DNA of 64,000 nt from an uncultured delta proteobacterium (GTDB lineage: Bacteria > Desulfobacterota > Binatia > UBA9968): NCBI GenBank assembly GCA_963804165.1, contig CAWDPO010000038.1:1-64000 (forward strand). The letters are read 5' to 3'. Made by a program: the position numbers and the translations under genes. The notes beneath the pieces are model-generated. The model saw nothing but the letters and a program-made list of their open reading frames with translations, was not told where the DNA came from and made no database searches. This document shows positions 1 to 28,179 of the stretch, one piece after another (position 1 is the first letter of the stretch; each line of letters starts with the position of its first letter).

Positions 1-181
1 TTGCGTTTGCTGCTGCGCGTCGAGTCCTCAGCCCCAGCACACCGCGAACGCGACGAAAGCGATTGCCAAAAGCCCACGCCAATTTTCGATTTTGGATCCT
101 TCGGCGCGGCTCAGGACAGGTTTTAGATTTTAGATTGTCGGAGCAAGAATTCAGAACTCGGAGCCAAGACTTTTCATTCAT
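1..181 (-). CDS. 5' end of a probable further array SBP gene (runs off the window; signal-peptide region appears frameshifted)
   Basis: Leader MNEKSWLRVLNSCSDNLKSKTCPEPRRRIQNRKL matches the leaders of 2369..3442 and 5621..6741. An AQQQ motif follows in another frame. Confidence 0.55.
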   Translation of the reverse strand, partial: MNEKSWLRVLNSCSDNLKSKTCPEPRRRIQNRKLAWAFGNRFRRVRGVLGLRTRRAAANA

Positions 182-224
182 GCGTTTTCTCTCCCTCAAT
201 CCAAAATCTAAAATCGAAAATCCA
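82..224. repeat. AATCYAA-heptamer imperfect inverted repeat (array leader) with an embedded 23-nt REP-like insert
   Basis: ttttagattttagatt (121-136) faces aatccaaaatctaaaatcgaaaat (198-221). Insert ccttcggcgcggctcaggacagg at 98-120. Confidence 0.8.
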
Positions 225-238
225 CAATTACTTGTACT

Positions 239-2368: not shown

Positions 2369-3442
2369 TCACTTGATCACCTTATCCGCCCGGTACAGCA
2401 CGTTCGGCGGAACTGTCAGGCGGATCTGCTTGGCCGCCTTAAGGTTGATCACGAGCTCGAACTTTATCGGTGCTTCCACCGGCAGGTCAGCCGGCTTCGT
2501 GCCCCTTAGGATCTTGTCAACGTACGTCGCGGCCCGCCTGTGCATGCCCGAGTAGCTTGGCCCATAGGACATCAAGCCACCCGCCTCGACCAACTCCACA
2601 TAAGCATGCACGCCTGGTAAGTGGTTTTGGGTGGCGAAGTCCATGATGCGCACGCGGTGGTGCAGGAACAGTCGGTCTGCTAACACGAGGAGCGCACCTG
2701 GTCGTTCTCTGAGAATTGTCGCAAATGCATTGTCGAACTGCTCCTCGGCTTGCACCCCCAGCGACAGCACTTTTATTTTCATTGCATGAGCAGCCGCCTG
2801 TGTCTCCTTTTCCCCCGCCACCTGCAAGGGGCTGGTGGGATTCCAGAGCACCGCAACGTGCGAGATTTTAGGGACCACTTCCCTGAGCAACTCCAACCGC
2901 TTCCCGTCTAGCTCCGGTGAGATCGAGGTCAACCCGGTGAGGTTTCCACCAGGGTGGGCGAGACTCGCGATGAGGCCCGACCCCACGGGGTCCCCGACGG
3001 CGATCATGACAAGGGGCAGCGTCGTTGTCGCCTGCTTGAGAGCGATCGTGGCGGGTGTGCCGGCGGTAACGATCAGTTCGACCTTCGAGGCGATCAGCTC
3101 CGCGATGAGGGCAGGAAAGCGCTCGTACTTTCCTTCCGCCCATCGCCACTCAATGACGATGTTTTTACCCTCGACATAGCCAACGTCATGCAACCCTTCG
3201 CGAAAGGGCCCGATCAGATTTGCCTCCAGGGCAGCGGTAGAGTTTCCCAGGAAACCGATCCGGGGGACCTTCCCTTTCTGCTGCGCCTCAGCCGTTCCCA
3301 CACACCCCACGAGCAGGACGAGGATTAGAAGAAACCCCACCCATTTTAGATTTTGGATACTTCGACTCAGCTCAGTACAGGTTTTAGATTTCCGATTATC
3401 AGAGCGAGAATTTGGAGATCGCATCCAGGTTTTCTCATACAT
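2369..3442 (-). CDS. ABC_sub_bind-family SBP, array copy
   Basis: Signal peptide-AEAQQ, DPVGSGLIASLAHPGGNLTG, GGLMSYG, PPNVLYRADKVIK. Confidence 0.92.
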   Translation of the reverse strand: MYEKTWMRSPNSRSDNRKSKTCTELSRSIQNLKWVGFLLILVLLVGCVGTAEAQQKGKVPRIGFLGNSTAALEANLIGPFREGLHDVGYVEGKNIVIEWRWAEGKYERFPALIAELIASKVELIVTAGTPATIALKQATTTLPLVMIAVGDPVGSGLIASLAHPGGNLTGLTSISPELDGKRLELLREVVPKISHVAVLWNPTSPLQVAGEKETQAAAHAMKIKVLSLGVQAEEQFDNAFATILRERPGALLVLADRLFLHHRVRIMDFATQNHLPGVHAYVELVEAGGLMSYGPSYSGMHRRAATYVDKILRGTKPADLPVEAPIKFELVINLKAAKQIRLTVPPNVLYRADKVIK

Positions 3443-3488
3443 TTGTTTTTCTCCTCAATCTAAAATCGGCAATCGAAAATCTAAAATA
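3342..3488. repeat. AATCYAA-heptamer inverted repeat leader with REP-like insert (3360-3381)
   Basis: attttagattttggat[acttcgactcagctcagtacagg]ttttagatttccgatt faces aatctaaaatcggcaatcgaaaatctaaaat. Confidence 0.8.
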
Positions 3489-4472
3489 TCATCTGATGAC
3501 TTTGTCCGCTCTGGCCAGCACATTCGGCGGAATCGTCAGTCCGATCTGCTTGGCGGTTTTGAGATTGATGATCAGGTCGAATTTTACGGGCCGCTCGACA
3601 GGCAGATCGGCCGGCTTGGTACCCTTGAGGATTTTATCGACAAAGGTCGCGGCGCGCCTATACATATCCGCATCATTTGGTCCGTAAACCATCAGGCCGC
3701 CGGCTTCGGCAAATGGAATTTGCCCATGGATTGTTGCGAAGCGGTTCTTGATGGCGAGGTCTGCCACTCGCGTTCGGTGCGTGAAAGTGACCGGATCACC
3801 GATAGTCATGAGGGCTCCGACGCTGTTCTTTTTTGCTGCCTGAAATATATTGTCTAGATCGTTGGGTCCACGTATTTCCAAAACTTGAATTTTTAACGCT
3901 AGCGACTGCGCCGCAAGTTCGGCATCTTTCAATGCGTCCGCGGTGCCCAACATGCCGGGGTTGCGAAGAACCGCGACGCGGGAGAGCCTGGGAATCGCTT
4001 CTTTGAGCAGCTCCAGACGTTTGCCATTTAACTCTTCGGCGTTGGAAGTGAGGCCCGTAATGTTGCCCCCTGGCCGGGCCAAACTTGCGACCAACCCGGT
4101 TCGAACTGGGTCGGCTTCATACGCGAGAACAATGGGAATTGTTCCAGCAGCTTCTTTTGCTGGACGCGTCGCAAGGGGACCTCCCGTAACGATGACATCG
4201 ACTCTGAGCCGAGCCAGTTCTTTGGCGAATTCACGAAGTCGGTCGAGGTTGTCTTCAGCATAGCGATACTCTACGAGGATGTTTTGGCCTTCAGTGTAGC
4301 CTTGCTCGCGCAAACCTTGCCGAAACGCTTCGACTCGACCTAACATGGAAGCGGCCGAACCCACTGACAGAAAACCTATTCGTGGAACTTTTTTTCGCTG
4401 CTGCGCCTCAACTGCAAAGCAAAGCGCCAAGAGCACAGCGTTGAGAGTCAACCCAAAAATCTTTTTCTTCAT
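3489..4472 (-). CDS. ABC_sub_bind-family SBP, array copy
   Basis: Family motifs SLARPGGNITG and PADLPVERP...[13 protein letters not shown]. Confidence 0.92.
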   Translation of the reverse strand: MKKKIFGLTLNAVLLALCFAVEAQQRKKVPRIGFLSVGSAASMLGRVEAFRQGLREQGYTEGQNILVEYRYAEDNLDRLREFAKELARLRVDVIVTGGPLATRPAKEAAGTIPIVLAYEADPVRTGLVASLARPGGNITGLTSNAEELNGKRLELLKEAIPRLSRVAVLRNPGMLGTADALKDAELAAQSLALKIQVLEIRGPNDLDNIFQAAKKNSVGALMTIGDPVTFTHRTRVADLAIKNRFATIHGQIPFAEAGGLMVYGPNDADMYRRAATFVDKILKGTKPADLPVERPVKFDLIINLKTAKQIGLTIPPNVLARADKVIR

Positions 4473-4509: not shown

Positions 4510-5544
4510 CTATCGAATCACCTTATCCGCTCTCGCCAGCACATTCGGCGGGATCGTAAGGCCGATCTGTTTGGCCGTCTTTAGGTTGATGACGAACTCA
4601 AACTTTGTCGGTTGCTCTACCGGCAAGTCCGCGGGCTTCGTCCCTTTGAGAATCTTGTCAACGTAAGTAGCGGCGCGCCGGTTCAAGTCGGTAAAGCTCA
4701 CGCCGTAGCTCATAAGCCCCGCGTCTTCCACCCATTCCGGCGCGTAGTATATCGCCGGGAGTCGACTCTTTATCGCGAGGCCCGCAATCTGCTTTCGCTG
4801 AGAATTGAGGACGAAGCTCTGGAGCAGGAGGACGGCGTCAGCACGCTCCTTGCTTGCGGCTCGGAATGCCGTTTCAATTTCCTTGGGGCCGAGTATGTCC
4901 AAAAATTGCAGCTTCGCACCGAACAGTCCTGCGGCGCGTTCCATCTCTCTTAACGCTTGCGCGGTGCCTGGCACGGTCGAAGTCCCGAGGACGGCCAAGC
5001 GCGAAAGCCTGGGAACGGTCTCCTTCAGAAGTTCCAGTCGTTTTCCGCTGATGTCCACAGAAAGGCTTGACAAGCCGGTAATGTTCCCGCCCGGTCGCGC
5101 CAGACTGGCGACGAACCCGCTTCCGACAGGATCAATATCCTGCGCCATGACAATCGGAATCGTATTCGTCGATTCCTTGGCCACACGGGTTGGTGACGCA
5201 CCAGTCGTCACGACGATATCTACCTTGAGACGCACCAGTTCGGCCGCGAGCGCAGGGAGACGATCGACTTTACCCTCAGCCGATTTCCATTCAATGACGA
5301 TGTTCTTGCCGTCGATGTAGCCAAGCTCGCGCAGGCCTTGACGGAACGCTTCGGTGCGATCTGTGATAGCGGAAATGGAGGAGCCAGTTAGGTATCCTAT
5401 CCGGGGAGTTTTTGCCGACTGCGCCTGAGCCACGTCCCCAGCCACCACGAGCACGAAAGCGATTGCAAAAAGTCCCAGCCATTTTGGATTTTGGATTGCC
5501 GGTTTTCGATCGTCGGAAAGAGACCTCGAAGGAAAAGCGTTCAT
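4510..5544 (-). CDS. ABC_sub_bind-family SBP, array copy
   Basis: Family motifs DPVGSGFVASLARPGGNITG and [18 protein letters not shown]. Confidence 0.92.
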   Translation of the reverse strand: MNAFPSRSLSDDRKPAIQNPKWLGLFAIAFVLVVAGDVAQAQSAKTPRIGYLTGSSISAITDRTEAFRQGLRELGYIDGKNIVIEWKSAEGKVDRLPALAAELVRLKVDIVVTTGASPTRVAKESTNTIPIVMAQDIDPVGSGFVASLARPGGNITGLSSLSVDISGKRLELLKETVPRLSRLAVLGTSTVPGTAQALREMERAAGLFGAKLQFLDILGPKEIETAFRAASKERADAVLLLQSFVLNSQRKQIAGLAIKSRLPAIYYAPEWVEDAGLMSYGVSFTDLNRRAATYVDKILKGTKPADLPVEQPTKFEFVINLKTAKQIGLTIPPNVLARADKVIR

Positions 5545-5620
5545 CGGTTTGTTCTGCTGGCTTTCAATCCAAAATCTAAAGCATGTCCTGAGCCATGCCG
5601 AAGGATCGAAAATCCAAATG
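5481..5620. repeat. AATCYAA-heptamer inverted repeat leader with reverse-oriented REP-like insert (5584-5604)
   Basis: attttggattttggatt faces aatccaaaatctaaa[gcatgtcctgagccatgccgaagg]atcgaaaatccaaat. Confidence 0.8.
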
Positions 5621-6741
5621 TTATTTGATCACCTTGTTCGCCCGGAAGAGGACCGATTGTGGAATGGTTAAGTTGAGCGCTTTTGCTGGTTTGAGATTGA
5701 TGACGAACTCGAACTTCGTCGGCTGCTCCACGGGAGATCGGCGGGCTTAGCGCCTTTCAGTATTTTATCCACGTACGTTGCGGCGCGGCGAAATATCTCA
5801 AGATCGTTGGCTGAATAGGACATCAGTCCGCCGTTCTCAACCCAGGTGCTGCCCTCGTACATCGAAGGCAGGCGGTTCTTTATCGCCAGATCCGCGATCC
5901 TCTTCGAATTACGAAAAAGCGGGGTATTCGTAATCGTGATCACCGCGTTCGCGCGCCCGTTGACCGCTTCTCTAAACGCGCCCTGCAAATCCGGATTCGG
6001 ACCGCGCACGTCTAGGGATTGAATCCGTATCTTGAGAGAGCGCGCCGCAGTTTCATACTCTTTGAATCCAATGGCCGATATCGACCTATTCGTATCCCGA
6101 AGGATTCCGACGCGCGCCAACCCCGGAACCACTTCCGCAAGCAACTCCAGCCGCTTGCCGCTCAAGTCGCGCTGCAGTGTGGCAAGCCCCGTGATATTTC
6201 CACCTGGATGCGCCAGGCTAGCGACTAGTCCAGTCGCGACTGGATCTACCTGAGTCACCATGACAATGGGGATCGTCTTGGTGACCTGTTTGGCAGCGAG
6301 GATCGCGGATACAAGCGGGAGCACGAGAACATCGACCTTGAGTTGGACGAGTTCGGCGACGATGCCTGGGATCGACTCCTCTTTTCCCTCAGCGCCGCGA
6401 AACTCGATCACGAAATGTTTCTCCTCGACGTAACCGAGATCTCGCAGCCCTTGCCGCAACGCCGCGACGTACGGTCCAGGATTGGAAGCGTTGCCGGTTC
6501 CTGACAAGTAACCTATCCGCGCGATCCTCGCCGGCTGTTGCGCCTGAGCCACAGCCCCGCACAGCGCGAATGTGAAACCGAGAGCAACGATCCCCACCAA
6601 TTTTCGATTTTGGATCCTTCGACGTCGCTCAGTACAGGTTTTGGATTTCCGATTATCGGAGTGAGAGAAATCAAGCCGAATTCCAAATTTCCCTTGCATT
6701 TGTTTTTCTCCGTAATCCAAAATCGGCAATCTAAAATCCAA
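5621..6741 (-). pseudogene. ABC_sub_bind-family SBP, array copy, one frameshift near the C-terminus
   Basis: ORF 5668..6741 is normal up to PADLP. The tail PQSVLFRANKVIK* continues in another frame to the stop at 5621-5623. Confidence 0.85.
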
Positions 6742-6743
6742 AA
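6600..6743. repeat. AATCYAA-heptamer inverted repeat leader with REP-like insert (6616-6638)
   Basis: ttttcgattttggat[ccttcgacgtcgctcagtacagg]ttttggatttccgatt faces aatccaaaatcggcaatctaaaatccaaaat. Confidence 0.8.
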
Positions 6744-6960
6744 TTATTTAATGACCCTGTCCGCTCTCGCCAGCACGTTGGGCGGAATCGTCAGTCCGAT
6801 TTGCTTTGCGGCTTTGAGATTAATTATAAATTCGAACCTCGTCGGCTGCTCGACGGGCAGGTCGGCGGGAGATCGGCGGGCTTGGCGCCTTTGAGAATCT
6901 TGTCCACATAGTACGCGACGCGCTGGTATTGATCGTCGTCCGCCGTGTAGGACATAAGCG
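6744..6960 (-). pseudogene. Orphan 3' tail of an SBP gene (no 5' part) after the TA-like cargo
   Basis: Translates as [29 protein letters not shown]...[38 protein letters not shown], with a short internal duplication near 6870. Confidence 0.85.
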
Positions 6961-7661: not shown

Positions 7662-8792
7662 TCATCGGATGACCCGATCCGCTCGCATCAGCACATTCGG
7701 CGGAATCGTCAGGCCGATCTGCTTGGCGGTTTTGAGATTGATGACGAACTCGAACTTCGTGGGACGCTCGACAGGCAGCTCGCCGGCGTTTGCTCCTTTG
7801 AGGATCTTGTCTACCAGGCGCGCGGCCTCGTGGGCGATCTGTGCGTCGCTCGCGCCGTAGCTGGCGAGCGCGTCCACGGTGCTGCCCATTCGCGCATGAA
7901 ATATTGCCGGGACGCGCTTTGCGTTGGTCAATCGGGTGATTTCGTCGTAGAAGCCGGTGGCAAAACCACCCGGAATGGAAAGATACGCGTCGACCTCCGC
8001 CATCACCTCTAGTCCTCGCAGCAACTCTTCTCGTCCGCGCGCCTCACGCTCGACAAGCGTTATCCCGAGACTCGGCGCCGCCTGGCGCGCTGCCATGATT
8101 CCTTGTCGGGGTGAAGGATCTCTCGGATCGTAGATGGCGAGGACGCGGCGCACCTTGGGCGCGATCTCTTTGATGAGCTCAAGGCGTTTGCCCGAAAGCT
8201 CAGGATATTCGAATGTCATGGCGGTTGTGTTGCCGCCCGGACGGGCGAGGCTTTGGACTAAACCGGCGGCAACCGGATCGCCCGGCGTGAGGAAAACAAC
8301 CGGCACCTCAGCCGATGCCTCTCGGACCGGCTTGAGGAGTCTAGAGCCGATCAAGAACAGGACCTGTGCTTGCTGCCGCAGCAACCCTTCCACGATGGAC
8401 TTCGCGCTTTTTTCTTCCGATCTCGCGATCTTTACTTCCTGAACGACAAGCGACGGTGTGGCGTAACCGAGCTCGCCAAGACCGTTTTTGAGACCCGCCC
8501 CGATCTCTGAGAATCTCGGCTCCTCGGGAGCGCCGATGATTGCGATCCGGCGCTCCTTCGCTTGCTGCGCATGCACGAGATCGCAAAGGGCAAAGAGCAT
8601 GGCGCATAACATGATCGCGGATTTCACATTGCGGAGTGCGGATTTCAGTTGAATGCTGAAGTAAGATGGAAATTGATCGGAAGATATTTTGCTCATGACT
8701 CTTGCTCTATTTGCAAAATCCGGAAGCAACCCACGTTTTCCCTCGGTCCGGTTCTTACAATCCGAAATCCGCATTCCCCAATCCGAATTCAT
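7662..8792 (-). CDS. ABC_sub_bind-family SBP, divergent array copy
   Basis: DPVAAGLVQSLARPGGNTT and PVERPTKFEF...PPNVLMRADRVIR. The start overlaps the upstream stop (ATGA); the true start may be further in. Confidence 0.9.
   Translation of the reverse strand: MNSDWGMRISDCKNRTEGKRGLLPDFANRARVMSKISSDQFPSYFSIQLKSALRNVKSAIMLCAMLFALCDLVHAQQAKERRIAIIGAPEEPRFSEIGAGLKNGLGELGYATPSLVVQEVKIARSEEKSAKSIVEGLLRQQAQVLFLIGSRLLKPVREASAEVPVVFLTPGDPVAAGLVQSLARPGGNTTAMTFEYPELSGKRLELIKEIAPKVRRVLAIYDPRDPSPRQGIMAARQAAPSLGITLVEREARGREELLRGLEVMAEVDAYLSIPGGFATGFYDEITRLTNAKRVPAIFHARMGSTVDALASYGASDAQIAHEAARLVDKILKGANAGELPVERPTKFEFVINLKTAKQIGLTIPPNVLMRADRVIR
8629..8790. repeat. AATCCGM-heptamer inverted repeat leader
   Basis: ttgcggagtgcggattt faces aatccgaaatccgcattccccaatccgaat. 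Confidence 0.7.
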
Positions 8793-9838
8793 TTGATGAC
8801 GCGGTCCGCCCGGAACAGCACCGACTGTGGTATCGTCACGCCGATCTGCTTGGCGCTCTTGAGATTGATCACGAACTCGAACTTCTTCGGCTGCTCCACC
8901 GGTAAATCAGCTGGCTTGGTACCTTTTAGAATTTTATCAACGTAAACAGCGGCGCGGCGGTGCAAGTCGACGTAGTCTGTCCCATAGGACATAAGCCCAC
9001 CTGCTTCCGTCCACTCGCTGTCTCCATACATCGCCGGCAGCCGGCTCTTTGCCGTGAGATCTACAAAACGCTTTCTGTGGAGGATTAGAGCAGGGCCTGG
9101 CGGGATAATCAGAGCACTAGCACGTTCACCCTTTGCGGTTCTGAATACGCCGTCTAAATCCGGATTGGGACCTCGTATCTCAAGAGACACAACTTTGACG
9201 CCTAAACCATCTGCCGCCAGCTTTGTTTCTTGCAAAACCTCAGACATCTGTTGTTGAGCTGCAAGCGCCCCATCGATAAACACTGCCACTCGCGAAATCT
9301 TGGGAACCGACTCCTTCAAGAGTTCTAGTCTTTTGCCGCTTAGCTGTGGTGAAATTTGCGTCAATCCAGTGATGTTTCCACCTGGCTTCGCCAGACTGGC
9401 AGCAAACCTTGGAACAGCATCACCAACAAGCGTCATGACCAGGGGGATTGTCCTGGTGGCTTGCTGCGCAGCTTGAGTACCTGGGCTTCCCCCTGTCACA
9501 ATGACATCGACCTTGAGCCGGACCAGCTCGGCCGCAAGGTCGGGGAACCGATCAAGCTTTCCTTCCGCAAATCGAGACTCAATGACAATGGTTTTTCCGT
9601 CCACGTATCCCAAGTCGCGCAGACCTTGTCGGAATCCGTCGAAACGAGATGATTCAGCAGAAGGGGAGACGGCTGATAAATAACCTATCCGGGGAACTTT
9701 TCCTTGCTGCTGTGCCTCGGCGAGAGAAATAGTTGCCAGAAAGAAAGCTGTCAGTAGCCAGATAAAGATTTTTCCGCTCATCGGTTTCGCTCCCATCATT
9801 TTGCTGACGACTGATAACTGACCACTGACAACTGTCAT
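8789..9838 (-). CDS. ABC_sub_bind-family SBP, array copy
   Basis: Family motifs and tail PQSVLFRADRVIK. N-terminus MTVVSGQLSVVS is read from ACTGA-heptamer repeats. Confidence 0.92.
   Translation of the reverse strand: MTVVSGQLSVVSKMMGAKPMSGKIFIWLLTAFFLATISLAEAQQQGKVPRIGYLSAVSPSAESSRFDGFRQGLRDLGYVDGKTIVIESRFAEGKLDRFPDLAAELVRLKVDVIVTGGSPGTQAAQQATRTIPLVMTLVGDAVPRFAASLAKPGGNITGLTQISPQLSGKRLELLKESVPKISRVAVFIDGALAAQQQMSEVLQETKLAADGLGVKVVSLEIRGPNPDLDGVFRTAKGERASALIIPPGPALILHRKRFVDLTAKSRLPAMYGDSEWTEAGGLMSYGTDYVDLHRRAAVYVDKILKGTKPADLPVEQPKKFEFVINLKSAKQIGVTIPQSVLFRADRVIK
9804..9838. repeat. ACTGAYA-type heptamer repeat leader (also at 25019-25051 and 28145-28179)
   Basis: ctgacgactgataactgaccactgacaactgtcat. 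Confidence 0.75.
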
Positions 9839-9995
9839 CTGATCACTCTGGGTCCGCCCTTGCCAGCACGTTCGGCGGAATCGTGAGGCTGATCTGTTTG
9901 GCGGTTTTTAGATTGACGATGAATTCGAATTTCATGGGTTGCTCGACGGGCAGATCGGCGGGCTTGTCACCTTTTGGAATTTTGTGCATATAGTC
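9835..9995 (-). pseudogene. Orphan SBP 3' tail after TenA cargo
   Basis: Translates as [47 protein letters not shown](frameshift)RVIR*. Confidence 0.85.
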
Positions 9996-11681: not shown

Positions 11682-11727
11682 GGCTTCCTCTCCCTAAATC
11701 TGAAATCGAAAATCGGAAATCCAAAAT

Positions 11728-15044: not shown

Positions 15045-16316
15045 TTACTTGCTTATGCCGACCTTGCGGATAGACACGTCAGGCTGTGCTGCCAGATTGG
15101 TGGTCGGTTTTAAAAAGTTTTGTACCGTGTATTCGCCGATCTTGCGGCCCATCGCCGCGCCGGCTTCGCCGGATGTGCGGTAGTGTACGCCGTCGTATAC
15201 GCGGGCGTTGACGACTTCGGCAATGTAGTCGGAGAGTTTGTTAAAGCTCCGCGTCACTCCCTGCGCCGTGGTGCTGGTCAATTTAAAAGTGGCGGCGTCG
15301 CTGCCAAAGAATGTGCGCAGAACACTGGCAGCGGTAGACTGAAAGGTGCAGTGAGCGCATGGGTACTCCGGATGCATTGGCGTTCTAATAAACGGTTCCC
15401 AACTTGGATCGCGATCGGTGGCGTTATTGCCGTCCAGATCACCATTGCGGATCGCCGTGACCGGGCGCCAGAAATTGTATTTGTACTTGGCGTCGAAGAT
15501 CGCGACGCCCGCGTCTGACGCGGCCATCGAAAAAAGCGCGAAGAGGCGGGCATTGTCCAACAGATCAAGCCCTATTGCCGCTGAGAGCTGGCGCGCGATA
15601 GGGTTATACGTAGCCGGTCCCACCAACTCCCAAAAGCGCGCGATCTCGGTCTGCTCCCCGGTACGCGCCGAGCCGGTCTTCGCGCCCATCTTCTTAACTT
15701 CGGCGTAATCCTTTGCCCATTGCATGCTGGTGAGCGTATAGGGGGCTGTCGGGCGGAACTGGTTTCCGCTCCTAAGTCCGAACGGTCGAACCATTCCCCA
15801 ACTCGACATCACGGGAAACTCAGTGGGGACGTACTTGCCGGCGGTAGTGAATGGGCGATAGGTATTGGGCGCGTCGGCGCCGTCCGCGCGACGTTCGTCG
15901 AGTATCGCGTGGGCGGCTCGGTCGCCGAGTCGCAATCCTTCCGCCTTGGGCGAACCGTCGGCTACGGCAGCGAGCGATGTCTCTAACGCTTTATCGAAGT
16001 CCTTTGCTTGTTCGGGGTAGGCCAGCACTAGGACGTGGTGTGCCGCGACTGCGGCTGCAGCCTCACGTGACACGTCGGGCTCCACCGAAAATCGCGTCCG
16101 ATAAGGCGTGTAGCGCGGCTCGATGGAATTAACCGCTTCGAACATGGCGATATGAACCATGGCGATGTTGCGTGAACTCATGCCGGGCGTGACCCGCGCC
16201 GCGTAGCCCGCACTCACCGCCTTTTCATTCCAGTCAGTTATGACATCTGCTCTCGCCAAGCTGATCGATCCAAGCAGCAATGACGCCACCAAAATGATCC
16301 ATGCTAAGTACTTCAT
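15045..16316 (-). CDS. Vanadium-dependent haloperoxidase-like PAP2-superfamily protein, secreted; array cargo
   Basis: Signal peptide-ARA-DVITDWN. PAP2 motifs KYKYNFWRP, HPEYPCAH and ARVYDGVHY. Confidence 0.85.
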   Translation of the reverse strand: MKYLAWIILVASLLLGSISLARADVITDWNEKAVSAGYAARVTPGMSSRNIAMVHIAMFEAVNSIEPRYTPYRTRFSVEPDVSREAAAAVAAHHVLVLAYPEQAKDFDKALETSLAAVADGSPKAEGLRLGDRAAHAILDERRADGADAPNTYRPFTTAGKYVPTEFPVMSSWGMVRPFGLRSGNQFRPTAPYTLTSMQWAKDYAEVKKMGAKTGSARTGEQTEIARFWELVGPATYNPIARQLSAAIGLDLLDNARLFALFSMAASDAGVAIFDAKYKYNFWRPVTAIRNGDLDGNNATDRDPSWEPFIRTPMHPEYPCAHCTFQSTAASVLRTFFGSDAATFKLTSTTAQGVTRSFNKLSDYIAEVVNARVYDGVHYRTSGEAGAAMGRKIGEYTVQNFLKPTTNLAAQPDVSIRKVGISK

Positions 16317-16372
16317 GGCTTCCTCCTTGCGAAAGGTTAGAGGTCAGTATTTGCTCCAGGAGCGATGGGTGC

Positions 16373-16387
16373 GCAACGATTGTGCCA
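16373..16387 (-). promoter_or_regulatory. Sigma54 (-24/-12) promoter of the haloperoxidase-like gene
   Basis: Minus strand TGGCAC-AATCG-TTGC with exact GG-N10-GC spacing, 57 nt upstream of the ATG. RBS AAGGAGG at 16322-16328. Confidence 0.75.
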
Positions 16388-16638
16388 ACGATTCAAACCC
16401 CGTCTCAGGAAAAGACATAAGGTTCATAAGGCATTTATTCTTACGGTGATTCAGATCGCGCGAGCAAAGAGCAACTGCGGTTCACACAAACCTTCTCTTG
16501 GTTTACAGGGCATCCCACACAAGCGAAGAAGGGGACTACTGGTGGAGCGATACGTCATAAAAACCTTTCAGAGTCGTTCTGCGGTTGCTCGACAGCAATC
16601 AACTGACTATTTACTGCTCTCCTCGAATCTCCTCACGC

Positions 16639-16680
16639 CTAACGAATCACTCTGTCCGCCCTTGCCAGCACATTCGGCGG
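16639..16680 (-). other. Minimal orphan SBP tail (42 bp, [13 protein letters not shown]) forming an 'empty' array unit
   Basis: CCGCCGAATGTGCTGGCAAGGGCGGACAGAGTGATTCGTTAG, preceded only by a heptamer leader arm (16690-16714). Confidence 0.85.
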
Positions 16681-16718
16681 ACTCTTCACATTTTAGATTT
16701 TGGATTTTTGATTGTCGG

Positions 16719-17750
16719 TCACCGGATTACTTTGTCTGCTCTGGCTAAAACGTTCGGCGGGATCGTGAGTCCGATCTGCTTCGCTGCTTTCAGATTGATC
16801 ACGAACTCGAACTTCATCGGCTGCTCGACGGGGAGATCGGCGGGCTTGGCGCCTTTGAGAATTTTGTCGACGTAAACGGCCGCGCGGCGATAGTTCTCAA
16901 GTTGATCTGCTGCATAGGACATCAGGCCGCCAGCGTTCACCCATGGGCTGAAGGGATAGATGGTAGGTAACCGTTTCTTCACAGTAAGCGTAACGATCCG
17001 TTGCCGGTTCGCATCGAAAAGCCCGGTCGGATCTGGTGTTAGTGTGAGAGCACCGACACGCGCATTGGCTGCTGTTTCGAATGCCCTTTCCAAATCGTCG
17101 GCAACCCGCACCTCCATGATGTGAAGCTGGATCTGCAGAGAAGGGGCCGCTGCCTGTATCTCCTTCAAGACCCGCGCGGAGCGTGGACTCGGGAGTACGG
17201 CTACGCGAGCGAGCTTGGGAAAGATCTCTTTGAGCAGCTCCAATCGTTTCACACCCAAATCCGTCGCAGCGTTGGTTAATCCGGTCACGTTCCCGCCCGG
17301 CCGCGCTAGACTGGCGACAAGGCCATTACTGACCGGATCGGCTCCATCGGCCATGACGATAGGGATTGTCTTCGTCGTGTTCGAGGCAGCACGCGCTACG
17401 CTATTATTTTGCACGACAATGATATCGACCTTGAGTCGAACCAACTCGGCTGCTAACTCCGGAAGGCGATCCGGATTGCCGTCCGCGTATCTATGCTCGA
17501 TTATGATGTTCTGCTCCTCGATGTAGCCCAGTTCGCGCAGCCCTCGGCGGAACGAATCGGTACGGTTCGATTGAGCGTCAGCGGTAGACGCCACAAGAAA
17601 TCCGATCCGCGGGACCTTTGTTGACTGCTGCGCCTGGGCGGATATGCAAAGCGTCGAGAGCAGAGCGCCAAGCGCGAGACCAAAGAATTTTCTTCTCATG
17701 GATGTACTCGAGTGTTCTTGCCGCTCCCTGCTCCTTGCCCTTTGCTCCAT
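16719..17750 (-). CDS. ABC_sub_bind-family SBP, array copy
   Basis: Family motifs. Leader MEQRARSRERQEH is read from TGCTCY repeats. Confidence 0.92.
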   Translation of the reverse strand: MEQRARSRERQEHSSTSMRRKFFGLALGALLSTLCISAQAQQSTKVPRIGFLVASTADAQSNRTDSFRRGLRELGYIEEQNIIIEHRYADGNPDRLPELAAELVRLKVDIIVVQNNSVARAASNTTKTIPIVMADGADPVSNGLVASLARPGGNVTGLTNAATDLGVKRLELLKEIFPKLARVAVLPSPRSARVLKEIQAAAPSLQIQLHIMEVRVADDLERAFETAANARVGALTLTPDPTGLFDANRQRIVTLTVKKRLPTIYPFSPWVNAGGLMSYAADQLENYRRAAVYVDKILKGAKPADLPVEQPMKFEFVINLKAAKQIGLTIPPNVLARADKVIR

Positions 17751-17760
17751 GCTCCCTGCT
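17718..17760. repeat. TGCTCY-type heptamer leader (also at 26066-26100 and 27113-27140)
   Basis: ttgccgctccctgctccttgccctttgctccatgctccctgct. Confidence 0.7.
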
Positions 17761-18748
17761 ATTTGATCACTTTATTCGCCCGCTCAAGCACACGGACCGG
17801 AATTGTCAGTCCGATTTGTTTTGCCGCCTTAAGGTTAATGACGAATTCAAACTTCGCTGCCTGCTGCACCGGCAAATCAGCCGGTTTGGCGCCTTTCAAG
17901 ATCTTGTCCACGTAAACAGCCGCACGCCGATAGAGGTCAGTTGAGTCGATCCCGTAGTAGATGAGTCCGCCCTCATCGACATACTCCTTTTGCGGGTAAA
18001 TAGCCGGCAAGCGGTATTTGCCGGCCAGGTCAACGATCCGTTTTCTTTCGGCGAAATAGATGGGGTCGGCGACTATAATTGCATTGACCTGTTTCTGCTT
18101 TGCGGTTTGAAAGAAGCTCATTAAACTTTTGGGGGCGAGTTGAGTCTCGATCTCCTCCAATCTTAACTTCAGTGCCACACTCGCAGCCCTGAGTTCTTTC
18201 ATTTGGAGGCCTATTGCTATTGATGTGTCGGATAACTGCGGCCGCGGAAGTCCAACTCGAGCGAGCTTGGGAACCGCGTCCTTGAGTACCTCCAGCCTTT
18301 TGGTATTTAGCTCGACTACTAAACTCGAAACGCCCGTGACATTGCCTCCCGGCCGCGACAGACTAGCAACCAAACCTGCGCCCACGGGGTCCGAAGAGCT
18401 CGTCATCAGGATGGGGATCGTACTAGTTGCTCTCTTCGCCGCTAACGTAGCTCCTGTCCCTGTGACCAGAATTAGATCGACTTTGAGACGAACCAGGTCC
18501 GCGGCAAGCTCGTGTAGACGGTCAGGTTTCCTCTCCGTTGACCGATACTCGATGGTAATATTCTTTCCCTCGATCCAGCCGAGGTTGCGTACCTCCTGCC
18601 AGAACGGCTGTAGGCGAACCGCGATACCGGAAGCAGTGGTATTATCCAGGACACCTATGTGGAAGATTTTCCCTGTCTGCTGCGCCACTGAAGCAGCAGG
18701 CAGAAAAACGGCAGACAGTAGGAAGATAAAAACAAAGATCACTTTCAT
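17759..18748 (-). CDS. ABC_sub_bind-family SBP, array copy
   Basis: True start is MKVIFVFIFLL at 18748, with RBS AAGGAGG. Tail PVRVLERANKVIK. Confidence 0.9.
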   Translation of the reverse strand: MKVIFVFIFLLSAVFLPAASVAQQTGKIFHIGVLDNTTASGIAVRLQPFWQEVRNLGWIEGKNITIEYRSTERKPDRLHELAADLVRLKVDLILVTGTGATLAAKRATSTIPILMTSSSDPVGAGLVASLSRPGGNVTGVSSLVVELNTKRLEVLKDAVPKLARVGLPRPQLSDTSIAIGLQMKELRAASVALKLRLEEIETQLAPKSLMSFFQTAKQKQVNAIIVADPIYFAERKRIVDLAGKYRLPAIYPQKEYVDEGGLIYYGIDSTDLYRRAAVYVDKILKGAKPADLPVQQAAKFEFVINLKAAKQIGLTIPVRVLERANKVIK

Positions 18749-24006: not shown

Positions 24007-25051
24007 CTATCGAATGACTTTGTCTGCTCTCGCCAGCACATTCGAGCGAAATCATGAGACCTGATCCGCTTTGCGGTTTTCAGATTGATGATCAGCTCGA
24101 ACTTTGTTGGTTGCTCCACTGGTAGATCAGCAGGCTTCGCACCCTTTAGAATCTTGTCCACATACACGACCGCGCGTCGGTATTGATCAGCATCATTCGC
24201 TCCATAAAACATGAGACAACCCGTCTCTACATACACACTTCCCTCGCACATTGAGGGCAGTCTGTTCTGTATGGCAAGATCGCCGATGCGCTTTGAGTGA
24301 CGATTGAGCGCACCAGCGCTAACTGTAATGAGCGCGCTCACGCCCCCCTTAGTCGCAGCTTGGACTGCTCCCTCGAAATCAAGGCTCGGGCTGCGCACCT
24401 CTAGGGATTGAAGCGGTATCTTCAGTGTACGCGCCGCAGCCTCGTATTCTTTAAAAGAAATGGCCGCCGCTGGTGCGTCCGCAACCCAAAGGACTCCAAC
24501 GCGTGATAGCCGCGGAACCGCCTCCTTGAATAATTCCAAACGTTTCCCGCTTAGGTCTCGGCCAAGTGTGGTGAGCCCGGTGATATTTCCGCCCGGGCGC
24601 GCCAAACTATCGACGATCCCAGTCGCGACTGGATCCACACTTGCCACCATGACAATGGGAATCGTCTTGGTCGCCTGCTTGGCTGCGCGAATCCCCGGTA
24701 AGACTTGAACGACAAGCACATCGACGTTTAATTGCACGAGTTCGGCCACCAGACTTGGCGCTTGGTCCAGTTTTCCCTCAAGATACCGGTACTCAATGAC
24801 GAAGTTCTTTCCCTCAACATAACCCAGATCTCGCAGTCCTTGCCGGAATGCCTCCGGAACGGATGGAATCAGTAGCTCGGTCGGTCGGCGATATATACCC
24901 GATCCGAGAGACTTTCTTCGACTGCTGGGTCGCCACGGAGGGAGAAGGCGCAAAGAGCATGGCCAAAAGTACGAAACAAAAGATTTCTCTCACGCATTAG
25001 AGTTCCTCCTCGTTATCGCTGACGACTGATAACTGACACTGAATCTGTCAT
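24007..25051 (-). pseudogene. ABC_sub_bind-family SBP, array copy, frameshifts at both ends
   Basis: Core ORF 23970..24953 has family motifs. Signal peptide and tail are out of frame. Confidence 0.82.
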
Positions 25052-26106
25052 CTGATAACTTTATCCGCTCGCGCCAGCACATTCGGTGGAATCGTCAGGC
25101 CGATCTGTTTGGCGGTTATGAGGTTGATGACAAATTCAAACTTCGTCGGCTGTTCTACGGGAAGGTCCGCGGGCTTAGTGCCTTTGAGAATCTTATCGAC
25201 GTAGTAAGCGGACCGGCGATGCATATCGGGAAGGCTCGGAGCATAAACCATGAGGCCACCTTCCTCGACGTAAAACCTCCAAGGATATATGGCTGGCAGC
25301 CGGTACTTGTGTGCCAGGGCGATGATCCTTTGCCGGGATCTCTCAAGCACAGATGGATCCGAGAAGACGAGAAGGGCCTTAGGACGGGCCTTGCCCATGG
25401 CTGAGAATGCGGTCTCAATTTCCTGTGGACTTCGTACCTTCCAGGCTTGCAGTTGAACTCCTAGCGATTTGCCTGCCGCTTGTGCGTCTCTCCACCGATT
25501 TGTTGCTTCTGGAAAGTCTGGATTCTGGAGGACAGCTACCTGCCCGAGTCCGGGAACAACTTCTTTGAGTAACTCAAGTCTCTTTCCATCGAGCGCCGCG
25601 GAAAGAAGGCTCAGTCCAGTAATGTTCGCGCCAGGCTGGGCGAGACTAGCGACGAAGCCCGCCGTCACTGGATCAGCTCCAGTCGCCGCCATGACGATCG
25701 GGATAGTGGTCGTTGCCTCTTTCGCTGCCTGGACCATCGGACCGCCGTTGGCAACGATCACGTCGACCCGCAGCCAAACGAGATCCGCCGCCAGTTCGCG
25801 CAAGCTCTGCGGTTTCTCTCCGGTCCAGCGACGCTCGAAGACGACGTTTTGGCCTTCTATCCATCCCAGGTCGTGCAAGCCTTGCCGGAAAGCCTCGAAG
25901 TTTTCCTTGCTGAGCGGATCAGTCGGAGATCCTCCAGTTAATCGCCCAACTCTGTAGACTCTTGCTGCCTTCTGTGCCAGAGCAGAACTGCAAAGCGCAA
26001 GGAGCGCGGCGCAAACCGTAAAAGCAAACACAATTTTCCTCACGAGTTTTCTCTGTTTCTTTTTCTGCCCACTGCTCTTTGCCCGCTGTTCTTTGCTGAC
26101 GTTCAT
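25048..26106 (-). CDS. ABC_sub_bind-family SBP, array copy
   Basis: Complete family motifs, with ATGA overlaps at both ends. Confidence 0.92.
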   Translation of the reverse strand: MNVSKEQRAKSSGQKKKQRKLVRKIVFAFTVCAALLALCSSALAQKAARVYRVGRLTGGSPTDPLSKENFEAFRQGLHDLGWIEGQNVVFERRWTGEKPQSLRELAADLVWLRVDVIVANGGPMVQAAKEATTTIPIVMAATGADPVTAGFVASLAQPGANITGLSLLSAALDGKRLELLKEVVPGLGQVAVLQNPDFPEATNRWRDAQAAGKSLGVQLQAWKVRSPQEIETAFSAMGKARPKALLVFSDPSVLERSRQRIIALAHKYRLPAIYPWRFYVEEGGLMVYAPSLPDMHRRSAYYVDKILKGTKPADLPVEQPTKFEFVINLITAKQIGLTIPPNVLARADKVIR

Positions 26107-27136
26107 CTGATTATCCGATCCGCTCTCGCCAACACATTCGGTGGTATCGTCAGCCCGATCTGCTTCGCGGCTTTTAGGTTGACGATGAATTCAAATTTCG
26201 TCGGTTGCTCGGCGGGAATGTCGCCGGGCTTGGTGCCTTTGAGGATTTTATCGACATACGTGGCGGCGCGGCGGTCCAAGTCGGTCAGGTTGACGCCATA
26301 GGATATAAGCCCACCAGCTTCCACGTCGAGTCGATTGCGGTAAATGACAGGCAGCCGGTTCTTTAGCCGCGAGTTCCAATAGCTGTGTTCGATTAGGATT
26401 TAGAATGATTCCCGGAGCGGCATAGACGGGCGCGTCAGCGCGCTCTTTGGTAGCGGCTCGGAATGCACGCTCAATGTCCTTGGGTCCGTAGGGCATCCAG
26501 CACTTGAAGCTTTACCCCTAGCGCTCGTCGCGCGTTCGATCTCTTTTAACGCTTGGTGTTGCCAGGCGTGGTTGATCCCCCGAACACGGCCAGGCGAAAG
26601 AACTTCGGAACGATTTCTTTGAGCAGCTCCAGTTGTTTTCCGCTTAGCTCCGGCGCAACGCGGGAAAGTCCCGTGATATTCCCGCCTGGGCGCGCCAGGC
26701 TGGCGACGAAACCGTTTCAACGGGATCGGAATCCTGCGTCATAACGACTGGAATCGTATTGAAGCTTGCTTCGCTTGGCGGAACGCGTCGCGCCTGCGCC
26801 CGCCGTGACGATGACATCAACCTTCAGACGCACCAGATTCGCAGCAGCGGCGCGATCTTGTTTTCCTTCGTAACGAAACTCGATGACAATGTTTTTCCCG
26901 TCCATCATAGCCGAGCTCTCGCAGACCCTGCCGGAATGCCTCGGCGCGGAGCTTTGCAGGGTGACTAGAGAGCTATCGTTCAAGTATCCTATTCGCGGGA
27001 CTTTCCTTGGCTGCTGCGCCCCAACGGGAAAGCAAAGCGTAAAGAGCACGGTGCTAAGCGCAAGACCAAAGAATTGTCTTCTCATGAATCTACTTCTGTG
27101 TTCTTGCAACTCCCTGCTCCTTGCCCTTTGCTCCAT
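26103..27136 (-). pseudogene. ABC_sub_bind-family SBP, array copy with many frameshifts
   Basis: ORFs 26717..27136, 26248..26496 and 26103..26324 carry successive family segments. Confidence 0.82.
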
Positions 27137-27137
27137 G

Positions 27138-28179
27138 CTATTTGATCACCTTATCCGCCCGCGCCAGCACATTCGGTGGTATCGTGAGACCGATTTGTTT
27201 CGCGGTTTTCAGGTTGATCACGAGTTCGAACTTGGCCGATTGCTCGACTGGAATCTCGGCCGGCTTCGTGCCCTTAAGAATCTTGTCGACATCCACGCAG
27301 CGCGCCTGTAACTCTCAGCATCGTTGGACGAGTAAGAAATGAGCCCGCCAGGTTCTATCCAAAAACTCGACTCATACATTGAAGGCAGGCGGTGCTTTAT
27401 GGAAAGCTGAGCAATTTCCTTTCGGTGGCGATCTAACATGTTATTGCCAACCGTAATCAGAGCGCGCACGCGGCCTTTGACAGCGGATTGAAATGCACCG
27501 TGCAGATCGGGGCTTGGCCCTCGCACTTCTAAGGATTGCAGTTGAAGCTTTAATGCGATCGGCCGCAGCCTGGTACTCTTTAAAACTAAGCTTGGGTCCT
27601 TCTGCACCTGCATCCCACAGGACACCAACGCGAGAAATTCCTGGAATGATCTCTGTAACCAATTCTAACCGCTTACCGCTTAGTTCTCGGTTGAGCCTGC
27701 TAATCCCTGGTAAGGTTTCCACCTGGGCGGGCCAAGCTATCGACAAGGCCAGTCGCAACCGGATCCTGGTTGGTAACCATAACAATGGGAATCGTCTTGG
27801 TAGCCTGCTTCGCTGCGCGGATTGCCTGCGGATCTGGAGATACAAGGAGATCGACCCTGAGTTGTATAAGATCGGCTACAAGGCTTGGGATACGGTCGCG
27901 CTTTCCTTCAGCGTAGCGAAACTCAATCAGGATGGTTTTTCCGTCGACATAGCCGAGATCTTTCAGCCCTTGAAGAAACGCCTCAACGTTACGCCCTGGA
28001 ATAGAGGGCTCGCCAACCACCCTCACGTATCCTATCCGCGGGATTTTCCCCGGCTGTTGCGCCTGGGCGAACGAACCAGTTGTCAGGAGAACCGTTGCCA
28101 GTATCCACAAGAGAATTCGCCATGGGTTTTCTCCGATGTCTTTGCTGACAACTGACCACGGTCGACTGACAACTGTCAT
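27138..28179 (-). pseudogene. ABC_sub_bind-family SBP, array copy, frameshifted
   Basis: ORFs 27700..28179, 27441..27845 and 27218..27628, plus a tail ending at the stop 27138-27140. Confidence 0.82.

Follow-up and report, generated by a model that had tools for sequence, protein, structure and literature searches.

A probable deletion relic of a translationally coupled substrate-binding-protein gene recurs between tandem paralogs in related Binatia genomes

The window, the whole stretch of 64,000 nucleotides analyzed here, carries on its minus strand (1335-30179) a tandem array of about 26 paralogs of the PF04392 ABC substrate-binding-protein (SBP) family. It belongs to a metagenome-assembled draft genome of 7.5 Mb (80.9% complete, 5% contamination), in which about 150 such gene ends are present. 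An earlier note on this DNA counted 27 conserved gene ends, or tails, in the window; our count is 26, and all 26 belong to one protein family. Heptamer spacers follow nearly every stop codon, and period-7 arrays of several sequence types occupy most spacers of the array, while AATC-type heptamer arrays also precede unrelated genes (L136 and L029). Among the papers listed for Binatia SBPs, Binatota repeats, PF04392, and intergenic heptanucleotide or tandem repeats, none was seen to deal with these arrays or with the module considered below. One intact gene of the array is followed by a unit of short elements, whose features are listed here.

16719..17750, minus strand: upstream SBP gene, intact, 343 aa, PF04392 ABC_sub_bind (open reading frame; Pfam E 2.7e-46)
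16719..16763, minus strand: "tail1," the last 14 codons of the upstream gene and its TGA
16721..16719, minus strand: stop codon (TGA) of the upstream gene, marking the unit's left edge
16720..16722, minus strand: GTG overlapping the TGA (GTGA), putative relic start codon of a deleted downstream paralog
16690..16718, minus strand: putative relic 5' coding region, consisting of CCGAC, three AATCNAA heptamers, and AAT
16713..16690, minus strand: the heptamers, AATCAAAAATCCAAAATCTAAAAT (chance matches expected, 0)
16681..16689, minus strand: putative deletion junction, GTGAAGAGT, degenerate K-W/S-V-G codons joined to the Thr-Ile codons ahead of the tail
16639..16680, minus strand: "mini-tail," a 42-mer corresponding to the last 13 codons and TAG of the putative deleted paralog, reading frame intact
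16654..16682, minus strand: inverted repeat GTCCGCC-N15-GGCGGAC, arms at 16682..16676 and 16660..16654
16631..16638, minus strand: GCGTGAGG, start of a GTGAG-type spacer, directly after the mini-tail
Unit boundary sequence: CCGCCGAA

The upstream gene covers profile positions 9-293 of the 293 in PF04392. The unit itself lies as it had been described, with the stop at 16719 followed by a heptamer arm, 9 nt, a 42-nt tail, and the start of the next spacer; this order of parts stands, with the correction that five bases (CCGAC, 16718..16714) between the stop and the arm had been omitted. Two further near-matches to the arm occur in the window (198-221 and 1310-1333), both in the opposite orientation, and the 42-mer has no second match in the window at three or fewer mismatches. 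GTGAG-type spacers also follow the tails ending at 4510, 14007, and 24007. After the GCGTGAGG spacer at 16631..16638 there is no SBP gene, and no gene of any kind lies within about 320 nt after the unit; positions 16317-16638 have no match elsewhere in the genome and no SBP similarity by tblastn of the neighboring SBP (E up to 10). Because only 9 nt separate the arm from the tail, leaving no PF04392 ligand-binding body, and because no SBP similarity follows in 16317-16638, the unit is a remnant and not a gene.

The mini-tail encodes the family-consensus C-terminus and is homologous to the C-terminal end of PF04392 proteins. In alignments, homology to real gene ends starts 9 nt to the left of the 42-mer, and GTGAAGAGT is a degenerate form of CTGACGATT, that is, of Leu-Thr-Ile codons. 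Among the copies of the module described below, the mini-tail varies in step with the tail reading frame, with an identity of 0.87 at codon positions 1 and 2 and of 0.57 at position 3, and some mini-tails (L130, L140, and L146) carry another tail flavor, PQSVLF. The mini-tail of the window is 5 of 42 nt away from its closest real tail in the genome; among real tails, the median distance to the nearest neighbor is 4. It shows no amino acid change even though the junction beside it is the most degraded of the set, a combination that counts against a relic.

The inverted repeat in the mini-tail is real, and the earlier note had reported a similar TCCGCY-N15-GGCGGA pattern in many full copies. Its five core pairs (TCCGC/GCGGA) are indeed common, with standard pairs in 16, 22, 20, 20, and 25 of the 26 aligned tails; however, the outer G-C pair occurs in 1 of 26, and the innermost is a standard pair in 9 of 26. 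The full 7-bp hairpin is found in the unit's copy alone. The proposed check for covariation gave none: 63.2% of cells in the aligned window tails were paired, compared with 63.9% in shuffles, and pairs changed on both sides numbered 1, compared with 1.7 expected. In each stem pair, one side is fixed by an amino acid (Ser/Ile-Pro-Pro or Arg-Ala-Asp codons), and synonymous sites are equally conserved in loop and stem. Folding of 16620-16725 gave a z-score of +0.31 against shuffles, hence no excess stability; an Rfam search of 1-31000 with E up to 1 was negative, and no terminator-like site was detected in 16300-16900. A conserved structure was rejected on the lack of covariation and of excess stability and on the codon-fixed sides; judged from these alignments, the small hairpin is a by-product of codons. 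Codon preference had been named as a possible full explanation, but the bias, which spans a block of about 24 nt, exceeds plain codon preference.

The heptamers had been read as a leader arm, a reading that gives way on comparison with an intact gene at L138, a place in another genus of the same family. There, tail1-CGATGA-arm continues in frame into a signal peptide and then into an SBP body: an in-frame SBP precursor, MIEQSKIQNLKSVGLFAIVVALTVCGARAEAQETGKLPRIG, begins at the ATG within CGATGA, and a 141-aa part of it has a PF04392 match (E 3.1e-13). The arm in the window is nearly identical to that of the intact gene (TCGAACAATCAAAAATCCAAAATCTAAAAT) over the first 13 codons, and it encodes the Lys-rich n-region of the signal peptide; full genes in the window likewise carry this sequence within the part that codes for their N-terminus. 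Since the arm is the start of a coupled paralog that is intact in L138, the unit corresponds to that gene with its body deleted. Overlap of stop and start codons as ATGA is the arrangement of translational coupling between adjacent genes. The L138 gene conforms to it, its ATG in CGATGA overlapping the upstream stop, and the relic keeps the overlap, which reads ATGA in most other copies and GTGA in the window; the GTG of the window, we infer, was formerly a start codon. The relic differs from such coupled genes in that its predicted coupled frame enters the junction and, in the window, stops after 9 codons.

In the opa genes of Neisseria, CTCTT pentamers in the signal-peptide coding region shift the reading frame. 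The arrangement at L138 and at L111, a second copy in the same genome, is alike in that the repeat between the ATG and the hydrophobic core has a unit of 7 nt, a length not divisible by three; L138 has three units and its body is in frame, while L111 has four and its body is out of frame with the ATG. It differs in that L138 and L111 are two paralogs and not alleles, and the unit in the window has no body to switch.

Intergenic TAACTGA heptamer repeats have been reported in Beggiatoaceae, Cyanobacteria, and Bacteroidetes (MacGregor 2015, PMC4679880), and heptanucleotide elements in Geobacter metallireducens (PMC2700814). These elements resemble ours in comprising 2-6 tandem heptamers close upstream of starts at many places per genome, and differ from ours in that the unit here is AAAATCN and is translated in the coupled genes. 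Separately, one other spacer type in the window holds TCAGTTA, the reverse complement of TAACTGA.

Other empty units, for which a search in related genomes had been suggested, proved to be common: about 37 of 57 places share the junction. A search pattern for the module matched 10 of the 31 genomes of the genus, and a relaxed pattern matched 33 of 90 genomes of the family, in 14 of its 23 genera; reversed patterns, used as controls, matched none in either case. The 57 distinct places, whose classes were assigned by reading and eight of which come from the unpublished genomes G005 and G248, comprise 37 long-class relics with a GT(T/G)AGGCGATTCC junction, 9 short-class relics, 2 intact bodies, 5 arms that follow an SBP tail and run into other sequence, and 4 arms that do not follow an SBP tail. 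The left boundary is not uniform: about 15 codons are kept in the long class and about 9 in the short class, from which the conserved tail block is missing altogether, with 7, 8, about 21, and 23 codons left in further remnants of the source genome. The long-class junction, AAAAT(C/G)GT(T/G)AGGCGATTCC, shows single-base variants and small indels among copies, and conservation within the module is lowest here. Decay is plain to see in several copies (L013, L016, L132, L137, and L150). No orthologous locus was found in relatives, and the PAP2-like neighbor is absent from every locus retrieved. With left boundaries that vary and a hairpin that does not covary, the idea of a minimal functional site is left unsupported; both outcomes that the earlier note had set as refuting its inference are seen, or nearly so. 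The idea of a scar survives in one sense, as a paralog left after internal deletion of its body, but not as the footprint of cassette excision.

Cassette excision would make the tails attC-like sites of an integron-like array and the unit an empty cassette left by site-specific recombination. The array does recall an integron, with tandem open reading frames that each end in a conserved element of about 45 nt bearing a short inverted repeat, with a unit that holds no reading frame, and with tyrosine recombinase genes near some other arrays (C18:37620, C5:4150, and C37:1841). In integrons, an attC site carries a core of consensus GTTRRRY at its 3' end and an inverse core at its 5' end; the unit's copy happens to carry GTTAGGC at 16643..16637 (from CGT-TAG-GC), which would fit the core consensus. 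The element here, however, is the coding C-terminus of a single protein family, the reading frames are paralogs of that family and not unrelated cassettes, covariation is lacking, and the 7-bp stem is confined to the unit's copy. By eye, GTTRRRY is absent from the stops of the other tail-plus-spacer sequences of the window, and no inverse core could be seen. The genome holds 21 PF00589 matches, all of them on contigs other than that of the window (C38), so that no integrase is found there, and none of 10 scanned array-flanking reading frames is a recombinase. Tail-to-tail excision, moreover, cannot leave an arm between two tails, and we regard an excised cassette as extremely improbable.

A false join of repeated gene ends in the draft metagenome assembly is hardly credible either. 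Arrays of similar paralogs are prone to misassembly, and no single public contig among those examined, which were short and mostly from other paralogs, spans the unit with both flanks; stretches that lack such cover carry no information either way. Against an artifact, a contig of 153 nt from one public run matches 16650-16802 exactly and spans the mini-tail, the arm, the stop, and the upstream gene, another matches 16200-16649 exactly, and many assemblies, covering 33 of the 90 family genomes, show the same architecture. Independent assembly support is partial, and either matching contig may come from the source sample.

Taken as a whole, the unit is probably a deletion relic of a coupled SBP paralog that has been spread by homologous recombination or gene conversion, and we assign it no function of its own. 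In the ancestral arrangement, the downstream gene would have started at an ATG overlapping the upstream TGA (ATGA), with the heptamers as its first codons. A deletion would then have removed the whole interior of this coupled gene between the K-W/S-V-G codons, where the hydrophobic core begins, and Thr-Ile-Pro-Pro, 15 codons before the stop, leaving the start, the n-region, the junction, and the last 13-15 codons. Homologous recombination or gene conversion would subsequently have carried the relic to other paralogs and maintained it throughout the family, with the conserved C-terminal block and tail1 serving as the left homology and the mini-tail as the right. In each transfer, the recipient's own functional tail would become the new mini-tail, which would explain why mini-tails look freshly coding. 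Two other origins were considered and set aside: two separate deletions (of the left arm with the N-terminus, and then of the body) are unnecessary, as the intact L138 gene shows that one suffices, and simple tail-to-tail recombination would leave one tail and not the order tail-arm-tail.

Evidence for transfer comes from two loci of the source genome, C5 and C12, which have in common only a 242-nt patch of 94.6% identity. The right end of this patch falls inside the mini-tail, indicating that the module moves by homologous recombination. That this route applies beyond the one patch, and that the relic had a single origin, we infer; similarity of the junctions is what would point to a single origin. 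Upstream genes of the modules are scattered over a tree of gene ends and do not form one clade (450 nt; 120 of 150 gene ends kept by a tblastn filter; read without support values). In 12 modules, the gene bodies average 56% identity (0.32 at third codon positions), while the arm plus junction and the mini-tail each reach 77%. A mosaic with a patch bounded by family-wide homology, and gene ends homogenized relative to bodies, are likewise features of concerted evolution in tandem families. Tail1 also travels with the module. Its codon set is unusual (TTA GCC AGA ... ATC CGG TGA), and both of its signatures are present in 3 of 4 module tail1s and in 0 of 113 other unique tails (G000); by eye, most of the 53 after-tail arms, those of both intact coupled genes among them, have the signature in front of them. 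The odd codons were also considered as a guard against recombination between tail1 and the mini-tail, a role that found no support: by a hand count the two differ at 13 of 42 positions, near the typical distance between tails.

A relic formed repeatedly, the same deletion recurring by slippage at short similarities or heptamers so that the copies are independent, would also place modules behind upstream genes that are not one clade and give mini-tails of different flavors. Candidate similarities are GGGGAT/C..., where the hydrophobic core begins, and ACGATTCC, ahead of the tail; core starts of the GGGATCTTCGCC type are visibly similar to CGATTCCGCC, and the second class, with its other right boundary, means that body deletions happened more than once. 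We nevertheless consider independent recurrence quite improbable for the long class, whose junctions differ by single bases or small indels around one sequence. The odd-codon tail1 accompanies the module, a conversion-type patch is directly seen, and the 2 intact coupled genes are the only possible substrates that were found.

Further observations against a relic concern conservation. Columns of the arm and tail1 are mostly at least 90% conserved across copies from many genera, whereas a neutral scar should decay. The relics also number 46, compared with 2 intact coupled genes. In the tail, the block ACG ATT CCG CCG AAT GTG CTG has a top-codon frequency of 62-86%, compared with 25-44% in gene bodies, and a 20-mer of this block recurs in 11 of 13 other sampled family genomes; on these sequences, gene conversion alone does not obviously account for such conservation across genera. 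Selection might instead maintain the module (tail1, overlapping start, heptamers, and mini-tail) as a cis-acting element within the array, in which the heptamers could form a binding array for a putative RNA- or DNA-binding factor and the conserved block of about 22 nt could be a second site, or the coupled short reading frame could carry ribosomes to the next gene. The at least 90% conservation across 14 genera, the excess of relics over intact progenitors, and the tail block conserved at synonymous sites are in keeping with such an element, as are the period-7 arrays in most spacers and the AATC-type arrays before unrelated genes. The arm further contains a promoter-like CCGACA, 17 nt, and TAAAAT, matching at 9 of 12 positions (0.3 expected), a consensus match that by itself is no evidence.

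Every copy has a short reading frame that opens with ATG or GTG, and its frame is common to 16 of 23 long-class copies. In the other 7 the frame differs. The short reading frame is 9 codons long in the window and usually 27-29 elsewhere, and mini-tail variation tracks the tail frame and not that of the short reading frame; a small reading frame as a selected feature was rejected on these grounds. Readthrough or frameshifting that would link tail1 to the mini-tail was likewise rejected, given a TAA just before the mini-tail frame and the TGA in the upstream frame. Selection on the module is also hard to reconcile with the complete lack of the conserved block in the short class, with the visibly decayed copies, with the empty stretch of about 320 nt after the unit in the window, and with the absence of an Rfam family or of excess folding stability. 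We consider a selected cis-acting element unlikely. A bolder version, in which tail1-ATGA-heptamer-mini-tail would be a maintained, portable adaptor of about 90 nt, with a gene-end repeat on either side, that hops between paralogs by homologous recombination alone, appears less likely still; such an adaptor would be kept because a factor binds the heptamers and the block of about 22 nt, or because its two tails let units be added, dropped, or swapped.

As a deletion relic, the unit is comparable to pseudogene relics in tandem families, being a truncated copy between intact paralogs. It departs from them in that only about 80-90 nt remain, with the start and stop of the lost gene retained, and in that it occurs at many loci in 14 genera and is far more common than the intact form. 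Taken simply as a scar it matters little, being of an ordinary kind, yet it has been copied into many related genomes. For annotators, the heptamers are the first codons of a lost coupled paralog, and the conserved "tail" is the C-terminus of a protein. Because the relic is recognizable, it serves as a marker showing that SBP arrays exchange their 3' ends by homologous recombination. The comparison has also uncovered a gene arrangement in which a 7-nt repeat lies between an overlapping start codon and a signal peptide. Should the conservation prove selective, the module would be an undescribed cis element common to a family of uncultured soil bacteria; and if the adaptor were real, then together with heptamer-dependent frames, the SBP arrays of this soil lineage (Binatia/Deltaproteobacteria) would constitute a recombinase-free shuffling and switching system.

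Within the window, the unit sits in a head-to-tail array of ~26 SBP-family copies (1335-30179, minus strand) at ~1-kb spacing, in which a few unrelated genes (alpha/beta hydrolase, TENA-like, and PAP2-like) are scattered. All of the parts described in the earlier note were found in order behind the TGA at 16719, including the inverted repeat GTCCGCC-N15-GGCGGAC. The arm, said to follow the stop immediately, is present but separated from it by five bases, and 26 tails (C-terminal gene ends of PF04392 SBP paralogs) were counted in the window where 27 had been claimed.

Layout of the unit in the window
17750..16719, minus strand: upstream SBP gene, 343-aa ORF (PF04392 match, E 2.7e-46)
16718..16714, minus strand: CCGAC, between the TGA and the arm
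16713..16690, minus strand: heptamer arm AATCAAAAATCCAAAATCTAAAAT
16689..16681, minus strand: GTGAAGAGT, between the arm and the 42-mer
16680..16639, minus strand: 42-mer CCGCCG...CGTTAG (mini-tail)
16638..16631, minus strand: GCGTGAGG, directly after the mini-tail

Nearly all spacers carry 4 to 5 tandem heptamers directly behind the stop, of ATTTTNG, GTCAGNN, GGAGCAN, or GTGAG-like types; the types are also written AATCNAA/ATTTTNG, CTGACNA, GCTCCNT, and others. One of them includes TCAGTTA, which is TAACTGA, a repeat of Beggiatoaceae, in reverse complement.

Heptamer spacers in the window
121-228
1303-1333
3457-3487
6714-6744
8759-8787
9804-9847
11696-11727
17723-17765
26066-26096
27110-27144
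28145-28175

The home genome (G000; a draft of 7.5 Mb in 46 contigs, 80.9% complete) has ~150 SBP gene ends, 78 of them with <250 open codons upstream, and many copies are therefore broken or fragmentary. The copy at 24007 (24007-24160), with three lesions within 40 nt, looks truly decayed. A palindromic element of ~75 nt (AGGATTGAACTGAATTCTCC ... GTTCAGTTCAATCCT) occurs in 48 copies in G000 (≤3 mismatches, first arm), frequently just behind stop codons, including those of SBP tails that are truncated or come last in an array (e.g., C12:63096; C5 (rc) 34992; C21:3948; C23 (rc) 18431); none was found on the window's contig, C38.

The tail is the protein's coding C-terminus. Translated, the mini-tail gives the C-terminal consensus of the SBP family, and it differs from the nearest real tail at 5 of 42 nt, the median nearest distance between real tails being 4. 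The small hairpin within it, for which the earlier note proposed a covariation test, is a by-product of codons. Across the 26 aligned window tails, 63.2% of cells pair compared with 63.9% in column shuffles, with no excess of double changes; the outermost stem pair occurs in 1 tail, and in 9 tails the innermost forms a standard pair. One partner of each pair is set by the amino acid (Pro, Ala, or Asp), which leaves no room for real covariation. Among 120 unique tails of G000, the free partners have the pairing base in 77 to 88% of copies, and loop codons are equally biased (GTG in 99 and CTG in 85, and likewise G at the third position of the second Pro codon), while the same codons reach only 25 to 36% in gene bodies. 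The bias is thus stronger than plain codon preference. The fold of 16620-16725 is not more stable than shuffles (z +0.31), and Rfam gave no match in 1-31000. Synonymous sites are kept well above family codon usage in the block ACG ATT CCG CCG AAT GTG CTG, 10 to 16 codons ahead of the stop (e.g., window 3489-3539). A 20-mer of this block (≤2 mismatches) occurs 71 times in G000, and 11 of the 13 further family genomes sampled contain it. The same nucleotides recur in other genera of the family. Of 187 class genomes sampled from beyond the family, 10 have 1 or 2 matches each and the others none. Reading the hairpin as a codon by-product does not account for synonymous conservation spanning the whole block.

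As judged from sequence, the "leader arm" represents the opening twelve or so codons of a downstream paralog whose translation would be coupled to that of the gene before it, because a locus in another genus of the family (L138, genome G194) has a near-identical arm with an in-frame SBP body. There, the upstream gene ends in ...GTAATCCGATGA, as in the window, followed by the arm TCGAACAATCAAAAATCCAAAATCTAAAAT and then by MIEQSKIQNLKSVGLFAIVVALTVCGARAEAQETGKLPRIGLLDNS..., in frame with the stop-overlapping ATG and reading as a normal SBP precursor (PF04392 match, E 3.1e-13). A second copy in the same genome, L111, has 4 heptamers compared with 3 in L138, and its body is out of frame with the ATG. 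At both loci, AATCNAA heptamers form the first codons of SBP genes starting at an ATG that overlaps the TGA. ATGA stop/start overlaps are a textbook feature; the overlap in the window is GTGA. In Neisseria opa, the number of coding repeats sets the frame, and the coupled genes here combine the ATGA overlap with a frame-setting coding repeat of that sort; such a 7-nt repeat, lying where the signal peptide is encoded, could switch the gene on and off. Full window genes with these heptamers likewise have AATC-oriented repeats inside the ORF, just ahead of the signal-peptide hydrophobic core (e.g., MYEKTWMRSPNSRSDNRKSKTCTELSRSIQNLKWVGFLLILVLL...). Complementary ATTTT-oriented repeats behind the preceding stop can base-pair with these so as to enclose the ribosome-binding site and ATG, over 17 to 18 bp at 3325-3491 (minus strand) and similarly at 6590-6744 and 5480-5620 (one leader type), with no significant extra stability over shuffles (z -0.78).

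Tail-stop-arm junctions occur 6 times in G000. Within the genus, 10 of 31 genomes have the junction pattern, at 18 places in total; across the family, a relaxed pattern was found in 33 of 90 genomes, belonging to 14 of 23 genera. Searching with the reversed pattern as a control gave 0 both times. We classed 57 distinct places by eye; 8 of these, 7 of the long class and 1 of the short, belong to the unpublished genomes G005 and G248, and the conclusions are unchanged without them. Relics (empty units) make up 46 of the 57 places. In the long class (37 places), the arm is followed by the junction AAAAT(C/G)GT(T/G)AGGCGATTCC and ~15 final codons; in the short class (9 places), by TGGAATGCGGGCGGAC... 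and ~9 final codons. A full gene body stands behind the arm at 2 places and other sequence at 5, and at 4 the arm is not behind an SBP gene. At L114 and L117, in two other genera, the mini-tail ends in ...ATCCGATGA or ...ATTCGATGA before another arm-like AATC sequence, so the module can be nested or in tandem.

The observed unit would result if the coupled gene lost, in a single internal deletion, what lies between its K-W/S-V-G codons and the Thr-Ile-Pro-Pro codons located 15 codons ahead of its stop. Since long-class junctions differ by single bases or small indels around one sequence, they can be read as one ancestral deletion; the short class would then be a second deletion with another right boundary. 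Further remnants in G000 retain 7, 8, ~21, and 23 codons, so that left boundaries vary, an outcome which the earlier note had named as refuting its reading. These variable boundaries, together with a hairpin lacking covariation, speak against a minimal functional site. The excision scar proposed as the alternative survives as a deletion scar, not as a recombinase footprint: the array genes are paralogs, covariation is missing, and no tyrosine recombinase is present on C38, all 21 PF00589 matches in G000 lying elsewhere. The likeness to an integron array is superficial, as integron cassettes are unrelated genes, whereas here the genes are paralogs, the repeat is coding, and the hairpin does not covary. 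The integron core consensus is GTTRRRY; GTTAGGC at 16637-16643 (minus strand) fits it, but arises where the CGT-TAG codons meet the GC that opens the next spacer, does not recur in the other window tails read, and probably fits by chance. Tail-to-tail excision was rejected as an origin, as it would not leave the arm. PF00589 genes lie close to other SBP arrays (C18:37620-38105, C5:4150-4629, C37:1841-2320, and C10:36014-36493), three with nearly identical scores, as expected of copies of one mobile element; that on C18 is ~1.6 kb downstream of a tail-ATGA-arm junction with non-SBP sequence behind. On balance, we take the unit to be probably a deletion scar, neither site nor recombinase footprint; among known kinds, it comes closest to the pseudogene relics of multigene families that undergo concerted evolution.

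By the branching order of a tree of 120 of the 150 gene ends, genes upstream of relics are not mutual closest relatives. In 12 modules (14 parsed, less one with a short flank and one near-duplicate), mean pairwise identity was 56% in the upstream gene body, with third codon positions saturated at 0.32, 78% in the conserved C-terminal block, 82% in tail1 (the last 14 codons plus TGA of the upstream gene), 77% in arm plus junction, 77% in the mini-tail, and 52% in the 60 nt downstream. Tail1 has an odd codon signature, TTR GCY AGA ... ATC CGR TGA, both parts of which occur in 3 of 4 module tail1s versus 0 of 113 other G000 tails; both intact coupled genes have it too, and tail1 may serve for initiation at the coupled start. 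The most direct evidence of movement comes from contigs C5 and C12, whose similarity is confined to a 242-nt patch (94.6% identity), running from the C-terminal block through tail1 and arm to end inside the mini-tail, past which C12 resembles a different C5 tail ~1.9 kb further on. This suggests that homologous recombination moves the module and changes its downstream partner, with the mini-tail as homology. In such an exchange, the recipient would contribute its own, recently functional tail as the 3' part of the mini-tail, which would explain the freshly coding look of mini-tails: codon positions 1 and 2 have an identity of 0.87 versus 0.57 for position 3, the frame is intact in most of the long-class copies read, and some show the PQSVLF tail flavor. 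Certain mini-tails have private changes in common that are not tail-like (Asn to Glu at L026, L083, and L016), showing that they also decay as a lineage.

We retain, as an unlikely alternative, that a cis element is being maintained here, made up of the whole module or just of its heptamer array and block. Three observations misfit a plain scar: among copies from many genera, conservation reaches ≥90% in most columns of the arm and tail1, relics outnumber intact coupled genes 46 to 2, and the block keeps its synonymous sites above codon usage. However, the frame of the short ORF that begins at the overlapping start is not preserved (of 23 copies, 16, 5, and 2 fall in the three frames; the ORF of the window's unit has 9 codons), short-class copies are without the conserved block, several module copies are plainly decayed, and nothing follows the window's unit for ~320 nt.

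The window's heptamer spacers resemble the TAACTGA repeats described by MacGregor (PMC4679880) and the heptanucleotide elements of Geobacter metallireducens (PMC2700814). A literature search, without supplementary files, found no description of these SBP arrays or of the module. The main value of the relic, as a deletion scar, lies in what it reveals about recombination and about coupled, heptamer-started genes in SBP arrays.
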